Position numbers and translations under genes: made by a program. Positions 12,934 to 64,000 of a stretch of DNA of 64,000 nt are shown here, piece after piece; the first letter of the stretch is position 1; every line of letters starts with the position of its first letter. This stretch comes from Candidatus Uhrbacteria bacterium (GTDB lineage Bacteria > Patescibacteriota > Patescibacteriia > JACQRZ01): the NCBI GenBank assembly GCA_016188385.1, contig JACPHV010000032.1:5174-69173 (forward strand), given 5' to 3'. The notes beneath the pieces are model-generated. The model made no database searches, was not told the origin of the DNA, and was given only the letters and a program-made list of their open reading frames with translations.

Positions 12934-12990
12934 TGAGACTGGATTACATTGAATCGGACATGACCGGGAAGCTATGTTCCACCAGCCTCA
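12934..12990. repeat. MITE-like element, compact copy (motif B only)
   Basis: TGAGACTGG...GACATGACCGGGAAGCTATG...CCAGCCTCA. It shares TIR ends and the TGACCGGGAAGCT core with the other copies. Lies in the 93-bp gap between two minus-strand genes. Confidence 0.5.
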
Positions 12991-15908: not shown

Positions 15909-16091
15909 TTGTCTAGAATGAGACTATAGAAAAATAGCTTCCCGGTCATTTCCGATTCAATTTCGTTCCAAAAAGGATGATGGACGCGAAGGAATACTGG
16001 AGTATTCCGACAAGTTCAGCGCCTTTTGGGGATGAAATTGGGCGGAAAGGAGCCGGAAGAAAGTAACGTCTGATATTTTGCTACAGTCTCA
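15909..16091. repeat. MITE-like element, full-length copy (reverse orientation)
   Basis: TIRs ATGAGACTATAGAAAAATA / TATTTTGCTACAGTCTCAT. The interior is near-identical to the reverse complement of the copy at 58844-59023 (AGCTTCCCGGTCATTTCCGATTCAATTTCGTTCCAAAAAGGATGAT...GGCGGAAAGGAGCCGGAAGAAA). Confidence 0.75.
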
Positions 16092-18552: not shown

Positions 18553-18650
18553 TGAGACTGTAGAAAAATAGCTTCCCGGTCATATTTGATCTCAAACGGC
18601 GCCAAAATGAGCCGGAAGAAAGTATCGCCTGATATTTTTCTATAGTCTCA
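18553..18650. repeat. MITE-like element, medium copy with perfect TIRs
   Basis: ATGAGACTGTAGAAAAATAGCTTCCCGGTCA...GAGCCGGAAGAAAG...TATTTTTCTATAGTCTCAAT. The terminal inverted repeat is a perfect 18 bp. Confidence 0.7.
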
Positions 18651-35793: not shown

Positions 35794-37704
35794 ATGTCAA
35801 AAATTCTCGGAATTGATTTAGGAACAACGAATTCATGCATGGCGATCATCGAAGCAGGTACGCCAAAGGTATTGGAAAATAAGGAGGGCAACCGTACTAC
35901 GCCATCTGTCGTAGCGACCACAAGCGGCGGCGAGCGTCTTGTCGGCCTTTTGGCGAAACGGCAAGCGGTGACGAATGCGCTCAACACGGTATTCTCGGTT
36001 AAGCGTTTCATCGGGCGCAGATATGATGACGCCGCGGTGCAGCGTGATGTTTCACTTATGCCCTATAAGGTTGTGAAATCAGGAGATAGCGTAAAAGTAG
36101 TGATGCAGGGCAAAGAATACGCGGCCGAAGAAGTATCCGCAATGATTCTGCAGAAGATGAAAGCCGATGCGGAAAGCCGAATCGGTGAAAAAATCACAGA
36201 AGCGGTCATTACGGTTCCGGCATATTTTGACGACGCGCAACGGCAGGCGACTAAAAATGCGGGAAAGATTGCGGGGCTCGAAGTAAAGCGCATTATCAAT
36301 GAACCGACAGCGGCCGCGCTCGCATACGGATTTAACAAGAAGAAAGACGAGAAAATAGTCGTGTATGATCTCGGTGGCGGTACGTTTGACGTGTCGGTGT
36401 TAGAAGTTGGCGACGATACGGTGGAAGTGAAAGCGACGAATGGAGATACGCATCTCGGCGGCGATGACTTTGATCAAAGGATCATCGAGTGGCTCGTACA
36501 AGAGTTCAAGAAGGATCAGGGAGTCGATCTTTCGGCGGATCAGCTCGCGCTGCAGCGCCTTAAGGAAGCGGCGGAAAAAGCAAAACATGAATTGTCGTCA
36601 GCCACAGAGACGGAAGTCAATCAGCCGTTTATCACTGCTGATTCAAGCGGACCGAAACATCTTGTCATCAAGCTCACGCGCGCCAAGCTTGAAGAATTGA
36701 TTTCCGATCTTGCGGACAAAACGCTTGAGCCGTGCCGTAAAGCGCTCGCGGATGCCGGCATGAACGCCAGTAATATCAACGAAATAATCCTTGTTGGCGG
36801 AATGACGCGAATGCCGCTTATTCAGCAAACAGTGGAAAAATTTTTTGGCAAGACGCCGAATGTTTCGGTAAACCCCGATGAGGTGGTTGCTCTGGGCGCG
36901 GCCGTGCAGGCCGGAGTGTTGCAAGGTGAAGTGAAAGACGTGCTCCTTCTCGATGTAACGCCGCTTTCACTCGGTATTGAGACATTGGGAGGGGTTATGA
37001 CTAAGCTCATCGATCGCAATACCACGATCCCTACCTCCAAGAGTCAAATATTTTCCACTGCCGCGGACAATCAGCCGTCCGTCGATGTCCATGTCCTTCA
37101 GGGGGAGCGTGAGATGGCGCAGGATAATAAAACTCTCGGAAGGTTTATGCTTGATGGCATCCCGCCAAGCCCTCGCGGCGTGCCGCAGGTGGAGGTGACG
37201 TTTGACTTAGACGCAAACGGGATTCTCAATGTTTCCGCAAAAGATAAGGCTACGGGCAAGGAACAGAACATAACGATTACCGCCTCGACAAATCTATCTC
37301 AAGACGAGGTTGCCCGCATGACAAAAGAAGCCGAATTGCACGCTGAAGAAGACAAAAAGAAGCGAGAAAAGATCGATGTTAAAAATATGGCGGAAAGCAC
37401 GATCTACCAGACAGAGAAGGTGCTGAAAGAACACGGCGAGAAAGCGCCTGCCGATGTAAAGAAGGAAATAGAAGATCAACTTGAAGCGTTGAAAAAGGTA
37501 AAAGATGGCGATGATATAAACGCCGTGAAACAAGCGCTGGAGACAGTAAACCAAACTGTCTCAAAGATAGGAGCGTCACTCTATCAACAATCCGGCGAAC
37601 AAGCACCAGGAGCCGAGCCGCAGCAAGGAGACTCATCCGGTGAAAGCGATCAGGAAAAGAAAGACGAGAAGCCGATTGATGCCGATTTCGAGAAAAAGGA
37701 TTAA
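35794..37704 (+). CDS. dnaK: Molecular chaperone DnaK (Hsp70)
   Basis: [27 protein letters not shown] and the EEVD-less acidic C-terminus. Confidence 0.95.
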
Positions 37705-37718
37705 TTCATTCTATTGTA

Positions 37719-38801
37719 ATGAAAAAGGATTATTATTCAGATTTGGGCATTGCGAACAATGCGAGCCAAGATGACATAAAAAAAGCATTCCGCAAACTCG
37801 CGCATCAACATCATCCTGATAAGCAGGGCGGAGATGAAAAGCGATTTAAGGAAATCAACGAGGCGTATCAAGTGCTCTCTGATCCGCAAAAACGCCAGCA
37901 GTATGATCAGTATGGTCATGCGAATCATCAGGCAGGAGCTGGATTTTCATGGGAGGATATGGCGCGACAGGGAGGAAATGGCGGGGGGGTGCAATTTGAT
38001 TTTGGAGATCTCGGCGACGTATTTGGAGATATGTTCGGTTTTGGCGGCTCGAAGAAAGGCGCGCGGCGCGATACCCGCGGCAGCGACCTTCAAATTGATA
38101 TTGATATCGAGCTGAAAGAAGCTATCACGGGCTTGAAAAAAGAGCTTCGGATTCCGAAGTCAGTGAAATGCGACGCGTGCGCAGGATCAGGAGCGGAGCC
38201 TGGATCGAAAGTAATCACATGCCCCACGTGCGCGGGTAGCGGACAAGTCGCCACAACACAGCGGACGATACTCGGTGTGTTTCAGAGCGCGGCGCCGTGT
38301 TCCGCATGCAAAGCGACCGGAAAAAAGATCGAAAAAAAATGCAAGGCATGCTCCGGAGATGGCCGTGTCAGAAAGGAAGGAAAGATCAGCGTGTCAGTGC
38401 CCGCGGGCATTGACGACGGTCAGACATTGCGGCTATCCGGAGAGGGAGAAGCGGGCTCCCAGGGCGCGCCTGCGGGAGATCTGTATGTGCGTATCCATGT
38501 GCGGAGCGATAAACGCTTCGCGAGAAAAGGCGATGATCTTTATTCGGATCTCGAAGTTTCTTATTCCCAAGCCGCGCTTGGCGACAAGATAAAATTTCTC
38601 ACGCATGACGGCATGATGGAGGTCAAAGTGCCTGCAGCTATCCAGACGGGGCAGTTGATACGGCTTTCCAATCTTGGTTTGCCGCACCTGCAAAAAAAAG
38701 GGAGAGGCGACTTATACATACGCATAGTTGTCGCCACTCCAAAATCATTGAATAGAAAACAGAAGGAACTTTTCGAGCAATTGAAAAGAGAGGGGCTCTA
38801 A
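37719..38801 (+). CDS. dnaJ: Molecular chaperone DnaJ
   Basis: J domain with HPD (HQHHPDKQ), G/F-rich region, and four CxxCxGxG zinc-finger repeats. Confidence 0.93.
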   Translation: MKKDYYSDLGIANNASQDDIKKAFRKLAHQHHPDKQGGDEKRFKEINEAYQVLSDPQKRQQYDQYGHANHQAGAGFSWEDMARQGGNGGGVQFDFGDLGDVFGDMFGFGGSKKGARRDTRGSDLQIDIDIELKEAITGLKKELRIPKSVKCDACAGSGAEPGSKVITCPTCAGSGQVATTQRTILGVFQSAAPCSACKATGKKIEKKCKACSGDGRVRKEGKISVSVPAGIDDGQTLRLSGEGEAGSQGAPAGDLYVRIHVRSDKRFARKGDDLYSDLEVSYSQAALGDKIKFLTHDGMMEVKVPAAIQTGQLIRLSNLGLPHLQKKGRGDLYIRIVVATPKSLNRKQKELFEQLKREGL

Positions 38802-38865
38802 TCTGCGTTGGAAAAAGCTGCGTTTGTTTTGACATTCAATAGGATCTTTGAGAACATAGATATCA

Positions 38866-38930
38866 TGAGACCGTAGCACCATAGCTATTAAATCGGGAAT
38901 GACCGAGAAGCTCTGTCGCACCAGTCTCAT
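38866..38930. repeat. MITE-like element, compact copy (motif B only)
   Basis: ATGAGACCGTAGCACC...GGAATGACCGAGAAGCTCTGTCGCACCAGTCTCAT. Lies immediately upstream of the T4CP-like operon. Confidence 0.5.
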
Positions 38931-38963
38931 AATGGGTGTGTGTTTTTGTAGGATTTTAACGAT

Positions 38964-39491
38964 ATGTCTCTTCTCTCAATAAACGTATCAGTGCCAACAC
39001 CTGACATAAACATCACTAATCCCACATGGGATACGTTTATTATCCTCGCGTTTATCGGCGCGTCCCTTATGTACGCGTTTTTTGTGAGCAGGGAACGTCT
39101 CGCTATCGTTTTATTGAGCGTGTATTCAGCGCTCGCGGTCGTACTGACCACTCCACTCATCGTCAACGCGCTGTCCATCATGGGCACAGATGATTTTTTC
39201 AAATATCGACTCGCCGCTTTTTTGGGAATGTTTCTCCTTCTCTTCGTGCTTTATTCTCATAATTTGTCGCTCAAAGCCGACGTAGGCCATGTGTGGTGGC
39301 AAGCGATTCTGTTAAGCATACTGCAAGTCGGATTATTAATGAGCAGCATGCTCTATTTCATACCGCATCAATATTATACGAGCCCCATTGCGGATATTTT
39401 TTTTACGAGCGACGTGTCTCGTTCCGTATGGATTTTAGCGCCGATCGCCGCTATGGTCCTGATGCATCCGCGTAAAGCTCAAGTATCGTAA
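38964..39491 (+). CDS. Hypothetical 4-TM membrane protein (175 aa)
   Basis: Four hydrophobic helices. First gene of a tightly spaced four-gene operon. Confidence 0.5.
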   Translation: MSLLSINVSVPTPDINITNPTWDTFIILAFIGASLMYAFFVSRERLAIVLLSVYSALAVVLTTPLIVNALSIMGTDDFFKYRLAAFLGMFLLLFVLYSHNLSLKADVGHVWWQAILLSILQVGLLMSSMLYFIPHQYYTSPIADIFFTSDVSRSVWILAPIAAMVLMHPRKAQVS

Positions 39492-39502
39492 GATATATCA
39501 GT

Positions 39503-39997
39503 ATGCCCGATGGCAAGACAAAACGACCAGGACGAGAAATTCCCTTAAGTGAGGAACGGGAAAAGGCGACAGAAGGAAAAGAGGCGCATGGCGCCCCCGA
39601 GCGTGCCATCCGGCATCGGGAACAGAAAAAAGAGCAGAAGCCGCAGCTATCACGCATCCTGCAAGGTCGGAAGAAAAAGGCGATTCCTCCGCCCGGCGCC
39701 AAATCAAAGTTGTTGGCTGACATTGAAGATGTGCTTGCTGACGGGCTTGACGCGTATTATCAATCGTTGACGCCAGGTCAGCGCAAGGCTTTCAAGTCCG
39801 AAGGCGAACGCGCGGCATCCGCCATCGAGACGTTATTAAAAAAGGCGCAGGTCAAAGTCGTTGAAATTGTGCGAGTGATAAAGCGTTGGCTTTCTCTGAT
39901 TCCGGGCATCAACCAATTTTTCATAGAGCAAGAATCAAAGATCAAAGCGGATAAAATGATGCTGATGCACGAACAGCAAAAAAAAGAAGAGGAGTGA
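39503..39997 (+). CDS. Hypothetical protein with a basic, disordered N-terminus (164 aa)
   Basis: K/R/E-rich N-terminal 70 aa followed by a helical C-terminal half. Separated from the upstream gene by 11 nt. Confidence 0.45.
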   Translation: MPDGKTKRPGREIPLSEEREKATEGKEAHGAPERAIRHREQKKEQKPQLSRILQGRKKKAIPPPGAKSKLLADIEDVLADGLDAYYQSLTPGQRKAFKSEGERAASAIETLLKKAQVKVVEIVRVIKRWLSLIPGINQFFIEQESKIKADKMMLMHEQQKKEEE

Positions 39998-40019
39998 TTG
40001 CGGTCTCATAACCCACCCC

Positions 40020-42578
40020 ATGCCATTTTTTGAAGAACTCAACGAGGTCAATGCCATCATTGCGATCAGTGTCGCTCTTTTGTTTTGGAGTTTGCTCGGA
40101 TGGGGGGTCATTTCATTGTTCCGTTTTATCTTGCATAGGATTTTTGCGATCCCGATCGCGATGAGAAAGAAAGTTCTCCAAGTGCTTGTGCCGAAAGAAC
40201 CGGCAAAGAAGGAGGAAGAAGATAAATCATCAAAAAAAGATTATAAAGAGCTGATCGCAGTCGCGGAGAGTTTTTATGCGGCGCTGGGACATATCAGTTC
40301 ACGGTGGAAGCCGACAGCGTATTTTATTGGAAGGGAAGATCAAATCTCGCTTGAAATTGTCTCAAGCGGGGGAATCATCAAATTTTTTATCGTTGTTCCC
40401 GACTACTTGCAGCGTTATGTGGAAGAACAGTTTCACGCGCAGTATCCTTCAGCGCAGATTCTTGAAGTGACTGACTATAATATCTTCCGCGCGCAAGGGT
40501 ATATTCTCGCCGCGCCCGTCGTAATGACGAAGGATAGTTTTTTTCAGTTGCGAACGTATAAAAAGATGGATTCAGATCCGCTCAATTCCATCACCAACGC
40601 ATTAAGCAAGGTGGACAAATCACAAGGAGCGGCCATCCAGATCATGATTCGGACGGCAAAAAAGAAGTGGGCGCATAAAGGACCGAGTATCGCTCGAAAA
40701 ATGCAAAAGGGAAAGAGTCTTGGAGAAGCAATGAGCGGAAATCTGGCAGAGCGATTCATCAAGGGGTTTAATTCCGTGATGGGGTATGCGCTCGAACAGA
40801 TTCTTACCGGCGGCAAATCAAAGGATGCGCCGATCCCTAAAGACGATCAAAATATCATGCCGCGGCATACTCCGATGGAGCAGGAGTTGATTAAGTCATT
40901 GGAAGAGAAAGCGTCGAAAGTCGCTTTTGAGGCAAACGTGCGTGTTGTCACCTCCGCGGACACCGAAAAGATTTCCAAGATGCATCTGATCAACATCACC
41001 AACGCATTTGCGCAATATCTTGGCCCGGAATCCGGCATACAGCTCAAGAAACAAAAACGTCATCAGTTTTTCCGCAAGCCGCTCATTCGAAGCTTTATTT
41101 TCCGCAGATTTGATTATCGGAGGAAACTCATCCTTAACACCGAGGAGCTCGCGAGCTTGTTCCATCCTCCATTGAGTATCACCGAGACTCCGAATATCGA
41201 ATGGCTCAAGGCCCGCGTTGCCCCTCCGCCGTCTAATCTGCCGCAAGAAGGCATAGTCCTTGGCGAGAGCGATTACCGCGGACGCAAGCAATTGATCCAT
41301 ATGTTGCCGGAAGATCGCCGTCGTCATATGTATGTCATCGGTATGACCGGAACGGGGAAAACCACAATTATGACAAACATGATGGTGCAAGACGTAATCA
41401 ATGGAAACGGATGCGCGTTTATCGATCCGCACGGCGATGCCATTCAAGCGATCCTTGAGAACGTGCCGCCGGAGCGGGCTGATGACGTCATTCTGTTTGA
41501 GCCGGCCGATATGGAGCGACCCATCGGGCTTAATATGCTCGAGGCATCCGAAGCGCAAAAAGATTTTGCCGTGCAGGAGATGATCTCGATTTTTTATAAG
41601 TTATTCCCTCCGGAGATGATCGGACCGATGTTTGAGCACAACATGCGCAATGTCATGCTTACGCTCATGTCGGACGAGGATAATCCCGGCACCTTAGCGG
41701 AAATTCCTCGAATGTTTTCCGACAACGACTTTGCGCAAGAGTGGGTTGATAAACTCAAGGATCCGGTTGTGCGCGCGTTTTGGGAAAAAGAGATGGCGAA
41801 GACATCTGATTTTCACAAGTCAGAAATGCTTGGGTATTTGATTTCAAAGGTAGGTCGTTTTGTAGAGAACACCATGATGCGCAATATCATCGGACAGACA
41901 CATTCCGGTTTTGATTTCCGCGAGGTGATGGATCAGAAAAAGATTCTCCTGGTAAATCTTTCAAAAGGCCAGGTAGGGGAAGTGAACAGCAATCTGCTCG
42001 GTTTGATCGTCGTATCAAAGCTGCAGATGGCCGCGATGACGCGCGTGGATATCCCTGAAGAGCAGCGCCATGATTTTTTTCTCTATATCGATGAGTTTCA
42101 AAATTTTATTACCGACAGCATCGCAACCATATTGGCGGAAGCTCGCAAATACCGGCTTAATTTAATAATCGGGCATCAGTATATCGGCCAGCTCGTTCCG
42201 AAACAGGGAGATACGAAAGTGAGAGATGCCATATTCGGGAATGTTGGCAGCGTTGTCAATTATCGTGTTGGCGTAGACGACGCGGAAACAATGGCAAAGC
42301 AAATGGCGCCCGTATTTAATGAATTCGATGTAATGAATATCGAACGTTATACCGCCTATATCAGGCTCATGGTGCATCAAGCGGCCGCGCGCCCCTTTAA
42401 CATGAGAGTTTTTCCGCCGCCAAAGGGCGATAAGAAAGTCGCTGATGCGATCCGCCAATTGTCTCGACTGAAACATGGCCGAGACAGAGAAATCGTTGAG
42501 GCTGAAATCCTCGATAGATCTCAACTCGGCTCCGCTCTGTTGGATGAATTTTCTGACAGCGTTGAGCGGAGCTTGTAG
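40020..42578 (+). CDS. VirD4/TraG/TraD-type coupling-protein-like (HerA/FtsK superfamily) ATPase with N-terminal TM anchor
   Basis: N-terminal TM helix. The ~400-aa N-terminal region is unassigned. Walker A GMTGTGKTT is followed ~20 aa later by FIDPHGD (the T4CP-like DPKGE motif). Walker B FFLYIDEFQNF and ARKYRLNLIIGHQ are present. Confidence 0.7.
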   Translation: MPFFEELNEVNAIIAISVALLFWSLLGWGVISLFRFILHRIFAIPIAMRKKVLQVLVPKEPAKKEEEDKSSKKDYKELIAVAESFYAALGHISSRWKPTAYFIGREDQISLEIVSSGGIIKFFIVVPDYLQRYVEEQFHAQYPSAQILEVTDYNIFRAQGYILAAPVVMTKDSFFQLRTYKKMDSDPLNSITNALSKVDKSQGAAIQIMIRTAKKKWAHKGPSIARKMQKGKSLGEAMSGNLAERFIKGFNSVMGYALEQILTGGKSKDAPIPKDDQNIMPRHTPMEQELIKSLEEKASKVAFEANVRVVTSADTEKISKMHLINITNAFAQYLGPESGIQLKKQKRHQFFRKPLIRSFIFRRFDYRRKLILNTEELASLFHPPLSITETPNIEWLKARVAPPPSNLPQEGIVLGESDYRGRKQLIHMLPEDRRRHMYVIGMTGTGKTTIMTNMMVQDVINGNGCAFIDPHGDAIQAILENVPPERADDVILFEPADMERPIGLNMLEASEAQKDFAVQEMISIFYKLFPPEMIGPMFEHNMRNVMLTLMSDEDNPGTLAEIPRMFSDNDFAQEWVDKLKDPVVRAFWEKEMAKTSDFHKSEMLGYLISKVGRFVENTMMRNIIGQTHSGFDFREVMDQKKILLVNLSKGQVGEVNSNLLGLIVVSKLQMAAMTRVDIPEEQRHDFFLYIDEFQNFITDSIATILAEARKYRLNLIIGHQYIGQLVPKQGDTKVRDAIFGNVGSVVNYRVGVDDAETMAKQMAPVFNEFDVMNIERYTAYIRLMVHQAAARPFNMRVFPPPKGDKKVADAIRQLSRLKHGRDREIVEAEILDRSQLGSALLDEFSDSVERSL

Positions 42579-42656
42579 AGCAAATGGAAACGCGCGTAGG
42601 TTGACAATTTTTAGCGCTTCGGTAGGGTGGGAAAGAAAGAAAAATAAAAATCAAAT

Positions 42657-43505
42657 ATGGCATACCCTACGTTTTCTTATGATGAAGACACCACGAATGA
42701 CCCGGAGCTTTCGTTTGATGAGATCTTGGGCCAAGAGATGGCGCTTCCGGATGAATATTCCGCGGAAGATATTACTGTTGAGTCGGAGCCGGAAAGCGAA
42801 TTCCCGATCACTGACGAACCCCTATTATATGGCTCGCAATTATCAGCGACGGATGAAAACACGACAGCGGAGACGCATTCTGATCTCGTCTCCGAGAACA
42901 TCACCGGCCAAGACGCAGAGCAGATGAGCAGATCACGCCTTCTGTTGCTCAAGAAGGAGTTAGGCGAGATACGCGAAAGGATCGACCGCGCGCTTGAGCT
43001 TGTTGAAGCGCAGATACCGGTGAAGGCCGGGAAGGATGAAGATGATCAGGACGAATTCATACGAAAGATAGATTCACTGCTTGCACGTCAGGAAAAGAAA
43101 GGCGACAGCGCCGCCGCACCCGAAGAAAGCCGGATTATTGAAGGCGTGTTTGATGGCCAGCATATGATCGGTTCGGACGGCAGTCAGTATGCAGTGCCCC
43201 AAAATTACGCGTCAAAGTCAAAGCTTGTGGAAGGTGATGCTCTCAAACTCACCATCACTGAATCAGGTTCTTTTCTTTATAAGCAGATTGGTCCGATAGA
43301 GAGAGTCCGTCTTGTCGGCACGCTTGAGGCAGATGTTCATCATGAATCATATTCAGTCAAATTCGAGGATCGTTCATGGCGTATTCTTGCCGCATGCGCA
43401 ACATTCTTTCGAGGCGCGCAGGGCGATGAAGTAGTATTCCTTGTGCCAAAAGATCGAGCCAGCACATGGGCGGCTGTGGAGAATATCATTAAGAGGGTAT
43501 CGTAA
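42657..43505 (+). CDS. Hypothetical protein: acidic disordered N-terminus, coiled coil, C-terminal beta-rich (possibly OB-like) domain
   Basis: D/E-rich first ~90 aa. Coiled coil LLLLKKELGEIRERIDRALELVEAQ. The C-terminal ~110 aa is beta-rich (VEGDALKLTITESGSFLY...YSVKFEDRSWRIL...GDEVVFLVP). Confidence 0.45.
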   Translation: MAYPTFSYDEDTTNDPELSFDEILGQEMALPDEYSAEDITVESEPESEFPITDEPLLYGSQLSATDENTTAETHSDLVSENITGQDAEQMSRSRLLLLKKELGEIRERIDRALELVEAQIPVKAGKDEDDQDEFIRKIDSLLARQEKKGDSAAAPEESRIIEGVFDGQHMIGSDGSQYAVPQNYASKSKLVEGDALKLTITESGSFLYKQIGPIERVRLVGTLEADVHHESYSVKFEDRSWRILAACATFFRGAQGDEVVFLVPKDRASTWAAVENIIKRVS

Positions 43506-43676
43506 AGACTTTGCGCAATAACAGTATGTATTTCTTCCGGCTCCTTTCTGCCCAATTTCCCCCAGAAATTGCGCTGAACTCCTCAAAATATCTCGATATT
43601 CTTACTCATTCATCATCAATTTCTGGACGAAATTTGATCAGAAATGACCAGGAAGCTATTTTGCAAAAGGTCTTAT
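43505..43676. repeat. MITE-like element, full-length diverged copy (forward orientation)
   Basis: GTATTTCTTCCGGCTCCTTTCTGCCCAATTTCC...AGAAATGACCAGGAAGCTATTTTGCAAAAGGTCTTAT. The right end overlaps the dnaX ATG and the left end abuts the stop of ORF 42657..43505. Confidence 0.7.
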
Positions 43677-44760
43677 GAGTTTATATCGCAAGTATCGGCC
43701 CCTTACATTTGCGGCTATCGCGGGTCAAGGACATATCAAGCGTACGCTTGAAAATGAAATTATCCGAGACGAATTAGCGCATGCTTATATCTTTTCCGGT
43801 CCCCGCGCGGTTGGCAAGACGTCAACGGCGCGAGTCTTTGCGCGCGCGCTCAATTGCTCCACGCGCGTTGCCGAGCAGAGCGAACCATGCAACAGCTGTG
43901 ACCGGTGTACGGCAATTTTACAGAACCGTACACTTGATATCATCGAGATTGATGCCGCGTCTCATACGGGAGTTGATAATGTGCGCGAAAACATCATTGC
44001 CGCGGCGCGCGTGGCAAAGACAATGCTTCCTTACAAGGTCTTTATCATTGATGAAGTGCATATGCTCTCAACAAGCGCTTTTAACGCGCTCTTGAAATTG
44101 CTTGAAGAGCCTCCTTCATCTGTTATTTTTATTCTTGCCACCACCGAGATTCAAAAAGTGCCGGCCACGATCATATCGCGATGCCAGCGTTTTGATTTTA
44201 TGCGAATTACCCCCGCGGACATGAAAGCGCGACTGATGATGATCGTGAAACAAGAGGAAAAAACCCTTGATGAATCCGTGTATGATGATATTATTCGATT
44301 ATCAGACGGGTGCCAAAGAGATGCGGAAAGTTTGCTTGGACAGATTCTCGCGTTGCACGACACGAAGATTGATGCCCAGCTCGCGTCACTGGTGTTGCCA
44401 CATTCAAACCGCCAGCTCATTGCGAAACTTTTGGATGCGATCGCTGCTCGAAAAACTGATGAAGCAATCTCGCTCATAGATGCTATGATTGCGGATGGAG
44501 TGGACATTGAAACAGTTGTCAACGATACTATCGAAGACTTACGATCCTTGCTGCGTATTCAGAGCGGAGCAGGTGATACGGTACAGGAAGCAAAAAGCGT
44601 GCGAGAATCCCTTGAGGAATTAAGTAAAAAACTTTCTTCTTTGGAAGTACTCATGATCGCTGATTACTTTGCGCAGTGTTTGCAGGATATTCGTTTGTTC
44701 GCGCATATTCAGCTTCCGTTTGAAATCGCTGTGGTAAAATCATGCCTTCGAGCACAATGA
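43675..44760 (+). CDS. dnaX: DNA polymerase III gamma/tau-family subunit (short form)
   Basis: [21 protein letters not shown]...[23 protein letters not shown], a zinc module (CNSCDRC) and a DEVHML Walker B. Confidence 0.88.
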
Positions 44761-44834
44761 TGCGGGATCGTCTAACGGCAGGACCCGTGACTCTGAATCA
44801 CGTTATCCAGGTTCGAATCCTGGTCCCGCAGCCA
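44761..44834 (+). tRNA. tRNA-Gln (anticodon CUG), CCA encoded; U1:A72 first pair
   Basis: Acceptor TGCGGGA/TCCCGCA; anticodon stem CGTGA/TCACG with loop CTCTGAA; T-arm CCAGGTTCGAATCCTGG; discriminator G + CCA. Starts 1 nt after the dnaX TGA stop. Confidence 0.8.
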
Positions 44835-44946
44835 ACAAGGATAAAATTGAAAGGTTGCCTCGCGGCTTCGCCGCTCGGCATTGAATTCAGCGAGGATATG
44901 CCATGTTAATTTTTCAGTTTTACTCAATCTTTCCGAAAAAATTGAT

Positions 44947-45537
44947 ATGAGCATACTATGTATCCGCCACGGCAAGACGACTGGTGATATCGAAGATCGA
45001 TATGGTGGTGAATACGATGATCATCTGACGCCTGAAGGATTCAAGCAAGCAGAAAAACTCGCGGATGAGCTGAAAGATAAACATATTGAAACGCTCATAA
45101 CGAGCCCAATGCTACGTACCTGTGAGACAGCCGGAGTATTGCGCGAGAAGAACGGTACAGAAATCACATTTGAGCCGTGCTTCAAGGAGCGAAATCAGTA
45201 TGGAATCTTAACAGGGAAAATAAAGAGCGAAGCAAAAGCAGAATACCCTGATCTCGTTGAAAAGTTGAATAACAGACTCAACACGATTGAGGGGGCGGAA
45301 TCCTATGAAGATTTTCGGGACAGAGTTCAACAAGCCTTTTATCGCGTTGTAGAGACTTATCCATCCAGCTGCGTCGCCATTCTTTGGCACGGAGGCCCAA
45401 TGCGAGTGCTATTTCGCGATATCCTTAAGAAAGGAGAGTTGGATAAAGTGATCGGTGATTGCGCTTGGGTTGAGATCGAAAAAGAAAGGGACGAATTTGT
45501 GATAATGGACTCGCGAAGAATTAAGTTTCTTTTCTGA
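44947..45537 (+). CDS. Histidine phosphatase (phosphoglycerate mutase-like) family protein
   Basis: N-terminal LCIRHGKT (RHG catalytic motif). Start placed at the internal ATG at 44947. Confidence 0.7.
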   Translation: MSILCIRHGKTTGDIEDRYGGEYDDHLTPEGFKQAEKLADELKDKHIETLITSPMLRTCETAGVLREKNGTEITFEPCFKERNQYGILTGKIKSEAKAEYPDLVEKLNNRLNTIEGAESYEDFRDRVQQAFYRVVETYPSSCVAILWHGGPMRVLFRDILKKGELDKVIGDCAWVEIEKERDEFVIMDSRRIKFLF

Positions 45538-58815: not shown

Positions 58816-58843
58816 GCGCTCATGATTATTGAATGGTATAGTA

Positions 58844-59023
58844 TAGAGACCTCTGCAAAAGTCCATTTATGTATTTCTTCCGGCTCCTTTCCGCCCAATT
58901 TCGCCCCAATAAGATCCTAAACTTGTCGGAATACTCCAGTATTCCTTCGCGTTTATCATCCTTTTTGGAACGAAATTGAATCGGAAATGACCGGGAAGCT
59001 CTTTTTCAGAAGTCTCTATAGAC
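58844..59023. repeat. MITE-like element, full-length copy (forward orientation)
   Basis: GTATTTCTTCCGGCTCCTTTCCGCCCAATTTCG...GGAAATGACCGGGAAGCTCTTTTTCAGAAGTCTCTATAGAC. Near-identical to the reverse complement of 15909-16091. Confidence 0.75.
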
Positions 59024-62401: not shown

Positions 62402-63213
62402 CAAGTATGATCGACTTATCAATTATCATCGTCAACTATAACGCGAGCGGATTAGTGCGTGAGTGCATAAAAGGTATCAAGCAATTGAATTCCAAGCTTA
62501 GCATTGAAATTCTTGTTGTCGATAACAGTCCGCGAGATGGGCTGCGCGATATGCTTATTGAACGGTTTCCCGATGCGCGATATATTCCGCAGAAGAGCAA
62601 TTGCGGTTTTGCGGCAGGAAACAATGCCGGTATCAGGCTTGCGCAAGGAAAATACGTGTTGCTTCTGAACTACGATATAACGCCTCTGGCGTATTCCATA
62701 GATTATCTATACGAATATCTTGAGAAGAACCCGAAGGTAGGTATGGTGGGGCCGCGGCTCATCAATCCGAATGGAACGATTCAGCAATCATTCTACCGCT
62801 TTCATTCATTATTGACTCCTCTCTATCGCAGACTCTGGATCGGAAGACTCGGTTTCGGAAGACGCCATCTTAATCGCTTTTTAATGGCGGATGCCGATAC
62901 ACAGGCGCCTTTTGATGTAGATTGGCTGTTGGGCGCCTGTCTCATGGTCCGCACTTCGTCAATCAAGTCGGTGGGCATGATGGATGAGAGATTTTTTCTT
63001 TATTTCGAAGATACTGATTGGTGTCGGCGGTTTTGGAAAGCCGGATTACCCGTGAGATATGTGCCGGAAGCGCGCATGGTTCATCTTCATCGGCGCGAGT
63101 CTGCGAAAGGGAACGGTATTCTCTCGCTCGCAAGAAAGACAACACGAATACATGTAGCAAGTTGGATGAAATATACTCTTAAGTGGCACACACATGGAAG
63201 ACGAGCTGTTTGA
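62392..63213 (+). CDS. Family 2 glycosyltransferase
   Basis: LSIIIVNYNASGLVRECIKGI...LVVDNSPRDG...GFAAGNNAGIR. Confidence 0.8.
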   Translation: MDITSMIDLSIIIVNYNASGLVRECIKGIKQLNSKLSIEILVVDNSPRDGLRDMLIERFPDARYIPQKSNCGFAAGNNAGIRLAQGKYVLLLNYDITPLAYSIDYLYEYLEKNPKVGMVGPRLINPNGTIQQSFYRFHSLLTPLYRRLWIGRLGFGRRHLNRFLMADADTQAPFDVDWLLGACLMVRTSSIKSVGMMDERFFLYFEDTDWCRRFWKAGLPVRYVPEARMVHLHRRESAKGNGILSLARKTTRIHVASWMKYTLKWHTHGRRAV

Positions 63214-63229
63214 TTCACGAAGCGGCATT

Positions 63230-64000
63230 ATGCGAGGAGTGCTTGTGATCATACTATTGATCGTGATTGCTGCAGGCGTGCTCTATGGATATCGAACATG
63301 GAAACGTTTTGGTCTTGTCAATAAGATGGTCATTGACGTTCAGACTCATCTAACGAACGCGTCGCAAGATTTTTTGCCAGAAAATTTTTTCAACGCAAAA
63401 ATGGAGCTTCAGTCAGCCGCAAAGATACTCGATGACACGCGAGACATACTCGCATCGATCTCGGTATTGGGCGCTGTGCCGTTTACCGAGGATCGCTATC
63501 ATATCGCAGTTCAATTCAGCGAAGCAGCACATTCTTACATTGATACAGGCATCCAACTCGCAGAGCTTGTCGAGCACATTTCGGAATCTGCAATCACGCA
63601 AGACGGAACCATTTCATTCGCCGAAGTGACACCGGCGCAACGGGCAATTATTCTTGAGCGCACAGTACAATCGATACCGGCGTTTAATGGCATTAGGGCA
63701 AAACTTGCTTTACTCGCCCGCCAGCTTTCTTCGATCAACGATGAATCACTTGATGAACCTTATCGATTGATGAAGTACGACCTGTTGAAAAAAAGCGGAT
63801 TTATCGAGTATTCACTGGGACAGATCATTCCTTTTTTGGAAGTAGTCCCTCGATTTTTAGGATATGCGGATGATAAGACATATCTTATACTCTTTCAAGA
63901 CGTACGCCGTGTACGCGGTACGGGCGGATTGATAACGCTTTATGGCATTATGCGCGTTAAGGACGGAAGCATATCAGACTTCAAAGTTTCGAACCCTGAT
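63230..64000 (+). CDS. DUF4012-like membrane protein, 3'-truncated by window end
   Basis: N-terminal TM (VLVIILLIVIAAGVLYGY). YLILFQDVRRVRGTGGLITLYG matches the DUF4012 hallmark (LLLFQNNAELRxTGGFIGSY). The ORF is open to the window end. Confidence 0.6.
   Translation, partial: MRGVLVIILLIVIAAGVLYGYRTWKRFGLVNKMVIDVQTHLTNASQDFLPENFFNAKMELQSAAKILDDTRDILASISVLGAVPFTEDRYHIAVQFSEAAHSYIDTGIQLAELVEHISESAITQDGTISFAEVTPAQRAIILERTVQSIPAFNGIRAKLALLARQLSSINDESLDEPYRLMKYDLLKKSGFIEYSLGQIIPFLEVVPRFLGYADDKTYLILFQDVRRVRGTGGLITLYGIMRVKDGSISDFKVSNPD

Follow-up and report, generated by a model that had tools for sequence, protein, structure and literature searches.

A large part of the diversity of bacteria is found in the Patescibacteria, which live in attachment to other cells and possess an essential T4SS whose locus carries no recognisable coupling protein or relaxase. 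Homologues of coupling proteins (T4CPs) that lie far from virB4 are near-universal in the group (PMC12102498, Quinonero-Coronel et al. 2025): 5,713 VirD4-like homologues were counted in 2,918 of 3,035 genomes, just 148 of them near virB4, and the study notes the rarity of relaxases and suggests exaptation (PMC12102498). The ATPase that we describe here would be counted among these 5,713 proteins, and its family is to that extent already catalogued; the DUF8128/VirB4-like domain that it carries, its partners O2 and O4 and its linkage to dnaX are not described by Quinonero-Coronel et al. 2025 (PMC12102498) or by Wang et al. 2023 (PMC10633639).

The gene lies in a 64-kb stretch of DNA (the window), within a row of four co-directional open reading frames separated by gaps of 11, 22 and 78 nt, whose coordinates and lengths agree with those of the initial annotation. 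The block and its flanks comprise the following features:

35794-38801: dnaK-dnaJ, upstream flank of the block
38865..38930, + strand: compact MITE-like copy, 66 nt, terminal inverted repeats ATGAGAC...GTCTCAT
38964..39491, + strand: O1, 175-aa polytopic membrane protein with 4-5 hydrophobic segments (hydropathy)
39503..39997, + strand: O2, 164 aa, the conserved upstream partner of the ATPase
40020..42578, + strand: ATPase, 852 aa, membrane-anchored, T4CP family (DUF8128 plus TrwB/VirD4-type NTPase; Pfam, NCBIfam)
40038..40163, + strand: hydrophobic membrane anchor at the N-terminus of the ATPase, residues ~7-48, with basic RKK after it (hydropathy)
40164..41294, + strand: DUF8128 domain, residues ~49-425, predicted VirB4-type N-terminal-domain fold
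41295..42578, + strand: T4CP-type NTPase domain (TrwB_AAD_bind match, residues 429-774)
41340-41366, + strand: Walker A GMTGTGKTT, residues 441-449
41418-41438, + strand: (F)IDPHGD motif, residues 467-473
42081-42107, + strand: Walker B LYIDEFQNF, residues 688-696
42657..43505, + strand: O4, 282 aa, conserved partner encoded downstream of the ATPase, in most cases with dnaX next
43504..43676, + strand: full-length MITE-like copy, 173 nt, occupying all of the O4-dnaX spacer as far as the start codon (ATG) of dnaX
43675..44760, + strand: dnaX (clamp-loader gamma/tau), 361 aa, downstream neighbour of O4, with a Pfam-assigned orthologue in the related locus L052; a tRNA-Gln gene lies directly 3' of it

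Very probably, in our view, the region belongs to the chromosome of a Candidatus Uhrbacteria-like bacterium, has been inherited vertically and has a domesticated T4CP at its core; once the mechanism proposed below is taken together with identity and inheritance, the explanation as a whole stands at about an even chance.

The view of the central protein as a VirD4/TraG-like ATPase that carries a large additional domain at its N-terminus, already put forward in the initial annotation, is well supported, in that Pfam and NCBIfam, PDB sequence matches and invariant catalytic motifs all indicate membership of the T4CP family. Three T4CP models of Pfam exceed their gathering cut-offs, namely TrwB_AAD_bind (PF10412; 43 bits against 20.5, covering profile positions 10-331 of 387), T4SS-DNA_transf (PF02534; 33.8 bits against 20.1) and TraG-D_C (PF12696; 23.6 bits against 22), while TrwB_AAD_bind, DUF87 and TraG-D_C jointly match 47 of 48 family members. 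The Walker A, FIDPHGD and Walker B motifs are invariant in all 48, the sequence is strongly conserved (>50% across classes), the architecture PF26449 plus PF10412 recurs in 1,606 homologues, and the only PDB entries matched by sequence (phmmer) are TrwB (1e9r/1gl6) and DotL. Other motors of the superfamily stay under threshold: the FtsK profile PF01580 (cut-off 24) reaches no more than 12.5 bits (E 0.1), in the Walker A region only, Pfam finds no FtsK gamma domain, HerA-type DUF87 scores 21.7 bits against 23.2 and the HerA model NF040819 12.6 bits against 970, and the ATPase has no NurA-like neighbour. A MADS-like or HerA-type anti-phage defence module, which we rejected, would be a most improbable reading of these data; although PADLOC reports mad8 on the NTPase domain (E 3.8e-14), with weak matches to HerA models besides, the similarity is limited to the generic P-loop region, no other MADS or HerA-partner component was found, and a fixed housekeeping position with such strong conservation is unlike that of defence islands.

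[quoted passage not shown] Structure comparison suggests that this domain folds like the N-terminal domain of VirB4, with TM-scores of ~0.37 and an identity of 8-9%. The link appears purely structural and has no sequence-level bridge, the Pfam VirB4 N-terminal domain (CagE_TrbE_VirB) matching 0 of 48 family members and hhalign of a DUF8128 protein against one plasmid VirB4 aligning the Walker A region alone, with a probability of 2%. The C-terminal domain differs from that of VirB4 (TrwK of R388) by scoring as a T4CP instead: AAA_10 and P-loop_TraG match 12 and 14 of the 48 members, weakly (E>=1e-3), against 47 for the T4CP profiles. Because these profiles favour a T4CP and the VirB3/6/8 neighbours of VirB4 were not found near the gene, we rejected the possibility that the ATPase is itself a VirB4; its plasmid relatives, moreover, encode a separate true VirB4 as well. 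The ~30 window proteins scanned include neither a VirB4 nor a relaxase, as had been claimed, nor any other T4SS protein or a paralogue of the ATPase. In the annotated neighbourhoods of related loci, too, neither a relaxase nor genes for mating-pair formation were found.

Matches to the ATPase were obtained in 526 plasmid records, the best covering 80-87% of the query. These plasmid proteins, annotated as DUF87/'T4SS conjugative DNA transfer family' in Bacillus, Streptomycetaceae and haloarchaea (e.g. WP_128472464 on NZ_CP035190; WP_331738717 on NZ_CP108778), have the same two-domain architecture, alignable over its full length, at 24-27% identity (E 1e-39 to 1e-55), and their DUF8128 region is homologous to that of the ATPase at the sequence level; in the haloarchaeal plasmid relatives the two domains are separate genes. 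The Bacillus protein aligns across query residues 48-816 (BLASTP E 1e-55) and lacks the N-terminal anchor, the alignment beginning at residue 48; its gene precedes those of a Replic_Relax relaxase, of Tcp-like proteins and of an AAA_10 VirB4, and the Embleya and Natronorubrum homologues obey the same arrangement logic. Unlike the ATPase, the plasmid proteins are thus encoded in conjugation operons, with a Replic_Relax relaxase, VirB3/PrgI-like and TcpC/D/E-like proteins and an AAA_10 VirB4; no homologue of O1, O2 or O4 was found beside them. We found no paper on these homologues, which are apparently uncharacterised, and pLS20 was discarded as the source of the Bacillus proteins, since its T4CP is an ordinary two-TM VirD4. 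On plasmids of Bacillota, Actinomycetota and haloarchaea the two-domain protein takes the place of the coupling ATPase, the component that hands relaxase-bound DNA to the channel, and in the present lineage the gene has very probably lost its conjugation context and become fixed beside two lineage-specific partners.

That the best-scoring relatives are export-type T4CPs beside relaxases also weighs against a motor for the import of environmental or host DNA, akin to archaeal Ced/Ted or competence machinery, in which O4 would bind the incoming ssDNA. Natural competence and a reliance on scavenged nucleotides in Patescibacteria, together with the frequent presence of competence genes at ABY1 T4SS loci (PMC10633639, PMC12102498), make such a motor conceivable, and there are a ComEC gene near a haloarchaeal homologue and a weak NCBIfam similarity to CedB (E 0.003) and CedD (E 0.011); these two scores, however, are 16 and 14 bits against cut-offs of 700 and 600, and the window proteins scanned include no competence gene, so that we regard DNA import as quite unlikely.

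Gene order across related loci indicates that O2 and O4 are real conserved partners of the ATPase. O2 lies directly 5' of it in 68 of 77 loci, and the gaps between the two, mostly -4 to +30 nt, suggest co-translation; O4 follows the ATPase in 47 of 60 loci, and neighbourhoods seeded on O4 have a DUF8128 ATPase upstream in five of five cases, one of which (L135) is without dnaX. O2 is, as first described, a basic protein (net charge +9), with a low-complexity N-terminal half that is variable and rich in Pro/Glu/Lys; the alignment reveals in addition a conserved C-terminal domain of ~95 aa with the near-invariant motif W-L-x-x-I-P-G-V-N-K-F-F-L-E-Q-E-A-K-I-K. An exhaustive HMM search placed 1,773 clusters in its family, all of them small stand-alone proteins; profile searches gave no Pfam model and no PDB relative. 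Loci of the Parcubacteria type have no O2. O4 belongs to a family of at least 7,900 sequences and consists of an acidic disordered segment (residues 1-84; net charge of residues 1-80, -23), a pair of long helices (85-151) and two small barrels (158-280), in line with the acidic N-terminus, coiled coil and beta-rich C-terminal domain initially proposed. The barrels are predicted to be OB/cold-shock-like, i.e. of a nucleic-acid-binding type, which agrees with the earlier remark that the neighbours resemble nucleic-acid-binding proteins; profile searches with O4 against PDB and Pfam returned nothing significant.

The third neighbour behaves otherwise. O1 is indeed a multi-TM protein, and it matches no Pfam or NCBIfam family; among the 23 loci in which it occurs it adjoins O2-ATPase in only six, and in 17 a distance of 3.7-7.5 kb separates it from the ATPase, with opposite-strand housekeeping genes in between in the annotated locus L052, while about half of the measured dnaJ-to-O1 gaps are shorter than 100 nt. 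O1 therefore probably goes with dnaJ and is not part of the ATPase module, and the four-gene unit originally envisaged does not hold. One may ask whether the remaining neighbours are likewise together by descent only, the ATPase being a T4CP relic that stands alone, and O2, O4 and dnaX functionally unrelated genes kept adjacent by low rearrangement. O1, contiguous here and apart elsewhere, behaves in just this manner, a methyltransferase or other genes intervene between ATPase and O4 in several lineages, and 13 of 60 loci have no O4; yet the tight O2-ATPase spacing speaks for co-translation, and the ATPase-O4 pairing, recovered from all five independent O4 seeds, outlasts both the loss of dnaX and the replacement of upstream genes. 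We accordingly hold descent alone to be improbable, even if slow rearrangement in these genomes, instead of function, could account for part of the conserved order.

The same comparisons bear on the proposal that the four genes form an accessory or mobile translocation cassette that entered between dnaJ and dnaX and has MITE-like repeats as its borders, a proposal that the repeats at both ends and the carriage of the family by plasmids and a few phages outside Patescibacteria had made attractive. Two relatives, L001 (ATPase 92% identical) and L002, keep the identical order dnaK-dnaJ-O1-O2-ATPase-O4-dnaX and have no repeat copy, whereas dnaJ directly adjacent to dnaX, the arrangement expected of an uninterrupted insertion site, occurs in none of the related loci. 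The O2-ATPase, ATPase-O4 and O4-dnaX pairs, including the order ATPase-O4-dnaX, are retained down to an ATPase identity of just 42-45%, and the GC content of the block equals that of its surroundings. Synteny and empty repeat sites rule out the cassette, whose remaining probability is negligible; as judged from gene order, the module is neither accessory nor mobile and is an inherited part of the chromosome. Conservation of the block in place and free of repeats, which the initial annotation had named as an argument against mobility, is what the closest relatives display.

The repeats themselves are real: each of the two flanking copies carries terminal inverted repeats and folds into a long hairpin (predicted -43 kcal/mol for the full-length right copy), and the core AATGACCRRGAAGCT occurs six times in the window against 0.03 expected. 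Their bracketing of the block is nevertheless incidental, because the family also occupies four other, unrelated intergenic regions of the window. In common with bacterial MITEs they are non-coding, 57-180 nt long, bounded by ~20-nt terminal inverted repeats (TGAGACTRTAGAAAAATA...) and able to form a hairpin over the whole element, with six intergenic copies in three size classes that are absent from the orthologous sites of close relatives. The dnaJ-O1 spacer measures 162 nt here and 69 nt in L001, which lacks the compact copy, and the O4-dnaX spacer of L001, without the full-length copy, just 10 nt. There is no copy in 80 related loci, and 42 of 45 exact 18-mer matches in metagenomes are due to chance, leaving real copies in L111, L119 and L120 only. 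The flanks are AT-rich, with no consistent target-site duplication definable, and in the window we saw no transposase with matching ends. A known RNA or riboswitch was discarded because the Rfam gathering search matched no family at the repeats and returned two tRNAs only, and a shared promoter because promoter and terminator scans of 37600-45000 performed no better than shuffles. The repeats are a lineage-specific MITE family that was inserted later than the block and is unrelated to the ATPase module.

The proximity of dnaX deserves separate consideration. O4 adjoins it in 49 loci (median gap 79 nt), and where O4 is missing dnaX can follow the ATPase directly (e.g. L006, L060, L061, L068); an FtsK/HerA-like translocase acting on the cell's own chromosome in replication or segregation, with O4 as a single-strand-binding accessory of the DnaX clamp loader at the replisome, would explain the conserved order ATPase-O4-dnaX, and the OB-like fold and acidic tail of O4 do recall SSB-type proteins. 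Set against this are the persistence of the ATPase-O4 pair without dnaX (L135), FtsK_SpoIIIE and HerA profiles under cut-off, and the conjugation association of all non-CPR relatives. Southlakia epibionticum, the sole Patescibacterium with genetics, has furthermore a canonical essential FtsK and a dnaX without any such neighbour; this FtsK and the sub-threshold FtsK scores weaken the notion that the ATPase replaces FtsK, and we consider a replication-linked role unlikely. The protein SEML1_0293 of the same organism shows the Pfam match pattern of the ATPase, starting near residue 400, and is a candidate counterpart, not a proven orthologue. Tn-seq finds it non-essential, in contrast to the T4SS, which is essential (PMC10633639, Wang et al. 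2023), on which analogy a role of the ATPase in essential T4SS function is unlikely; the other T4CP homologue, SEML1_0142, likewise no proven orthologue, is essential, as is a small gene upstream of it (PMC10633639). The T4CP copies of Southlakia have no O2, O4 or dnaX neighbour.

Returning to a domesticated T4CP, we tentatively favor an adaptor-and-motor mechanism, to which we give somewhat less than an even chance. The ATPase would form a membrane-anchored ring in which NTP hydrolysis moves a nucleic-acid or protein substrate; O4 would act as a nucleic-acid-binding adaptor in place of the missing relaxosome, O2 might be a regulatory or assembly subunit, and DUF8128 might dock the ring onto the chromosomal T4SS of Patescibacteria or another membrane platform. 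A bolder version, which we think has a low probability, would make the ATPase and O4 (with O2 in ABY1-type lineages) a relaxase-independent nucleic-acid translocation machine ancestral to much of Patescibacteria, in which the OB-fold adaptor loads the motor for export or import of ssDNA/RNA at the epibiont-host interface, or in a DnaX-coupled fashion at replication; if so, the combination of a VirB4-like N-terminal domain with a T4CP-type motor would make the family a still-extant intermediate form linking VirB4 to the coupling proteins.

Either way, a conserved chromosomal T4CP-type motor that O2 and O4 usually adjoin, often near dnaX, is a candidate for moving nucleic acid or protein without the classical parts of conjugation. 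What had been a generic 'T4SS DNA-binding domain protein' annotation gives way to testable hypotheses by virtue of three results: a DUF8128 domain predicted to fold like the VirB4 N-terminal domain, an architecture common to the relaxase-adjacent ATPase of poorly studied Gram-positive and archaeal conjugative plasmids, and two large uncharacterised partner families, O2 (~1,770 clusters) and O4. The module overturns nothing established, and the functional roles are those that we infer.

Compared with the VirD4/TrwB/TraD/TraG coupling proteins, the ATPase shares the FtsK/HerA-superfamily NTPase with its Walker A, DPxGD, Walker B DEFQ and ARKY/HQ motifs, and an N-terminal membrane anchor; it differs in having ~380 additional residues (DUF8128) between anchor and NTPase, in scoring far under every NCBIfam equivalog cut-off, in lacking detectable relaxase or T4SS genes within 64 kb (~30 proteins scanned), and in an anchor that is one long hydrophobic helix (residues 12-48 in the AF2 model, pLDDT >90) where T4CPs usually have a two-TM hairpin. 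In the conjugation of Gram-positive bacteria, accessory relaxosome proteins with an OB fold are well established, and OrfL/OrfM of ICESt3 and PrgE of pCF10, small OB-fold proteins encoded with conjugative DNA-processing and transfer genes, offer a functional precedent for O4 (PMC12614216, PMC11137577); the likeness is one of predicted fold, and O4 differs from them in its two barrels, coiled coil and acidic tail and in having no relaxase to assist. The T4CP family was thus already known in Patescibacteria (PMC12102498), and what is added here is its DUF8128 domain, its O2 and O4 partners and its linkage to dnaX.

The four co-directional ORFs reported around the 852-aa ATPase lie exactly as the initial annotation described them, separated by gaps of 11, 22 and 78 nt, with hrcA-grpE-dnaK-dnaJ upstream, dnaX and a tRNA-Gln downstream, and a GC content (0.48-0.49) equal to that of their surroundings:

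38964-39491, + strand, O1, 175 aa
39503-39997, + strand, O2, 164 aa
40020-42578, + strand, the ATPase, 852 aa
42657-43505, + strand, O4, 282 aa

The ATPase had 1,606 homologues in a protein search; the top 120 were all more than 50% identical over full length, and those with an organism name came from Uhr-, Kerfeld-, Falkow-, Magasanik-, Kuenen- and Doudnabacteria and other Patescibacteria. When gene neighbourhoods were compared across 80 related genomic loci, O2 lay directly 5' of the ATPase in 68 of 77 informative loci, mostly with spacers of -4 to +30 nt, O4 lay 3' of it in 47 of 60 (about half directly adjoining, the rest with one inserted gene, in locus L052 a small methyltransferase), and O4 and dnaX were spaced by a median of 79 nt (49 loci). 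Among the 23 loci in which O1 was found, it adjoined O2 in only 6 and otherwise lay 3.7-7.5 kb upstream; the intervening genes in L052 (Dus, an AAA ATPase and CorA) run on the opposite strand. Since O1 is mostly apart from O2 while the order of O2, ATPase, O4 and dnaX recurs, the proposed four-gene operon is, judging from gene order, dnaJ-O1 placed locally beside a more deeply conserved unit, (O2)-ATPase-O4-(dnaX); the linkage of O2, ATPase and O4 thus holds, whereas the membership of O1 does not. O1, a small polytopic membrane protein with 4-5 hydrophobic segments and no family assignment, follows dnaJ in 13/13 loci with both genes (L001-L063 and the window), about half of the gaps being shorter than 100 nt, and this trailing position, often at short gaps, suggests that it is part of the chaperone operon and not of the ATPase module.

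When five O4 homologues served as independent starting points (their ATPase neighbours share 42-64% identity with that of the window), a DUF8128 ATPase lay upstream in 5/5 loci and dnaX downstream in 4/5, the single locus without dnaX keeping the order O2-ATPase-x-O4. The block is therefore vertically inherited with conserved O2 and O4 neighbours. That such synteny should carry no function appears unlikely, and a DnaX-linked role in replication or segregation, as its neighbourhood might invite, strikes us as similarly improbable. Three Parcubacteria-type loci place a DUF4012 protein upstream of the ATPase instead of O2; this protein (~900 aa) stands directly 5' of the ATPase, with spacers of 45-53 nt in L130 and L132 and 296 nt in L136. 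An enrichment of DUF4012 proteins in CPR and Gram-positive bacteria has been noted before, and the last, cut-off ORF of the window (63194-64000) opens with a weak DUF4012 match.

The initial annotation had also suggested that the block is an accessory or mobile module bracketed by MITE-like repeats, which are indeed present on both sides:

43504-43676, + strand, full-length element right of the block
15919-16091, - strand, near-full-length relative (78-79% identity range to the right-hand element)
58843-59020, + strand, near-full-length relative (same identity range)
18553-18650, - strand, shorter derivative
12934-12990, + strand, shorter derivative
38865-38930, + strand, shorter derivative, the left "bracket"

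All copies are intergenic, fall into size classes of ~57-66, ~98 and ~173-180 nt, carry terminal inverted repeats of ~20 nt (TGAGACTRTAGAAAAATA... in the best-preserved, ATGAGAC...GTCTCAT in the compact one) and form a single long hairpin (-17 to -62 kcal/mol); their 15-nt core occurs 6 times in the window against 0.03 expected. They matched no Rfam family, and neither a transposase partner nor a target-site duplication was identified. In L001, the closest relative (Candidatus Uhrbacteria, ATPase 92% identical), the dnaJ-O1 spacer measures 69 nt versus 162 nt in the window and the O4-dnaX spacer 10 nt versus 169 nt; the core has 0 occurrences in the 80 related loci, and of 45 metagenome contigs with an 18-mer in common, just three, L111, L119 and L120, contain a real copy. 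On these comparisons the repeats are a true, young, lineage-restricted MITE-like family, inserted after the gene block existed, and their presence on both flanks is incidental. As the block is conserved in relatives without repeats, they do not border a mobile module, and a mobile cassette is effectively excluded by the gene order of related loci and the short, repeat-free spacers of L001. The right-hand copy occupies the whole O4-dnaX spacer up to the dnaX ATG and provides the stretch in which its ribosome-binding site would be expected (AAAGG at about -8); because only 10 nt separate both genes in L001, the insertion may have uncoupled O4 from dnaX expression. The window dnaX encodes only 361 aa versus 511-587 aa in more distant relatives, and hence seems to be without the C-terminal region of tau; the tRNA-Gln begins at the first base past its stop codon (window 43675-44834).

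The ATPase motifs named previously, Walker A (G441-T449), FIDPHGD (residues 467-473) and Walker B (residues 688-696), are present and invariant in 48 family members. TrwB_AAD_bind, T4SS-DNA_transf and TraG-D_C all exceed Pfam cut-offs and PDB sequence matches are to TrwB and DotL only, bearing out the proposed type IV coupling protein (T4CP) identity; the top NCBIfam models, TraD and VirD4-like, score far under equivalog cut-offs, and profiles of the FtsK, HerA and VirB4 types match more weakly or fall below threshold. These profiles put residues ~426-852 in the T4CP clade; the protein is an NTPase of T4CP type, anchored in the membrane, whose catalytic motifs are intact. PADLOC mad8, of the MADS defence system, matches residues 432-762 of the NTPase domain (E 3.8e-14); this is probably generic T4CP/HerA-like similarity, no other MADS components lie near the ATPase, and a defence system is effectively excluded.

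The N-terminal domain, formerly called unassigned, corresponds to Pfam PF26449 (DUF8128), which homologues carry N-terminally. Residues 1-425 were modelled with AlphaFold2 (48-sequence alignment, pLDDT 86.6, pTM 0.81): a long N-terminal helix (12-48) coincides with the hydrophobic anchor and leads into an alpha/beta domain, and all 13 Foldseek matches at E <= 1e-3 were chains of TrwK, the VirB4 of R388 (probability 1.0), at low TM-scores (~0.37) and 8-9% identity. A VirB4-NTD-like fold is thus well supported by the predicted structure; since these values are low and no sequence-level connection to VirB4 N-terminal domains was obtained, common ancestry is something we infer.

Relatives outside Patescibacteria place this architecture in conjugation. 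tblastn against plasmids gave 526 records (Bacillus 316, Streptomyces 67, Clostridium 20, Sulfolobus 11, several haloarchaea), the best matches spanning 80-87% of the protein and both domains. The B. licheniformis homologue, aligning to residues 48 to 816 (E 1e-55), opens an operon whose later genes encode a Replic_Relax relaxase, Tcp-like transfer proteins, a VirB4 of the AAA_10 type (389 bits) and a protein the size of VirB6; that of Embleya is flanked by PrgI/VirB3 and a VirB4-like ATPase on one side and a Replic_Relax relaxase on the other; and in Natronorubrum DUF8128 has a 395-aa gene of its own, which overlaps the 5' end of a T4CP-type gene in a cluster of pilin and transfer genes, so that DUF8128 is a separable module. 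On the N. aibiense plasmid NZ_CP045489 (L129 7803-12024) a ComEC/Rec2 gene lies ~3 kb off. From these contexts, beyond Patescibacteria the DUF8128-T4CP architecture is that of a coupling ATPase encoded next to a relaxase on mobile elements of monoderms and archaea, which have VirB4 as a second, distinct protein. The window ATPase is accordingly classed with the T4CP family, DUF8128 being an additional VirB4-like domain, and not as a VirB4. No O2 or O4 counterparts were found adjoining the plasmid homologues. A few Bacillus phages encode full-length relatives (phrog_5156, E 5.6e-86 to the window ATPase, annotated "unknown function"; phage G gp156, JN638751 90955-93195; also ~55-kb B. subtilis phages, e.g. 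MN176225).

O2 (net charge +9) combines a variable low-complexity N-terminal half with a conserved ~95-aa C-terminal domain bearing the near-invariant motif W-L-x-x-I-P-G-V-N-K-F-F-L-E-Q-E-A-K-I-K; an exhaustive profile search yielded 1,773 clusters (1,653 below 1e-10), all small stand-alone proteins, and no relatives in Pfam or PDB. O4 carries a net charge of -23 across its first 80 residues. The ATPase would act as a ring-shaped translocation or coupling motor, with O2 as a putative assembly or regulatory subunit co-produced with it, and DUF8128 might dock this motor onto a platform in the membrane, the role played by the N-terminal domain of VirB4 in R388. O4 could be a nucleic-acid-binding adaptor replacing the relaxosome, for which OB-fold relaxosome accessories offer a precedent (PMC12614216, PMC11137577). 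That the motor instead imports DNA we consider unlikely.

The initial observation is therefore confirmed and its interpretation partly supported, and the locus, belonging to a very large, already annotated family, is an ordinary member and not exceptional itself. What the analysis brings out are features of the family that seem undescribed and are open to testing: we found no paper mentioning DUF8128 by name, and none describing its VirB4-like fold, the O2/O4 partners or the dnaX linkage of the ATPase. Among 3,035 Patescibacteria genomes, Quinonero-Coronel et al. found 2,918 with VirD4-like T4CP homologues, 5,713 in total, of which only 148 lie near virB4; they detected relaxases in only 103 genomes and raised t4cp exaptation as a possibility (PMC12102498). 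In Southlakia, Wang et al. found the T4SS essential, its locus having no recognisable coupling protein (PMC10633639). Of two Southlakia proteins, neither of which adjoins O4 or dnaX, SEML1_0293 shares its pattern of Pfam hits with the window ATPase and is non-essential, and SEML1_0142 (S. epibionticum; a ~1,019-aa "TraM recognition domain" ATPase, P-loop from near residue 380) matches the window ATPase in overall layout and is essential, with a small essential hypothetical gene, SEML1_0141, 12 nt upstream (PMC10633639 and supplement). The SEML1_0141-0142 arrangement resembles O2-ATPase and, by this analogy, might be its experimentally tractable counterpart.
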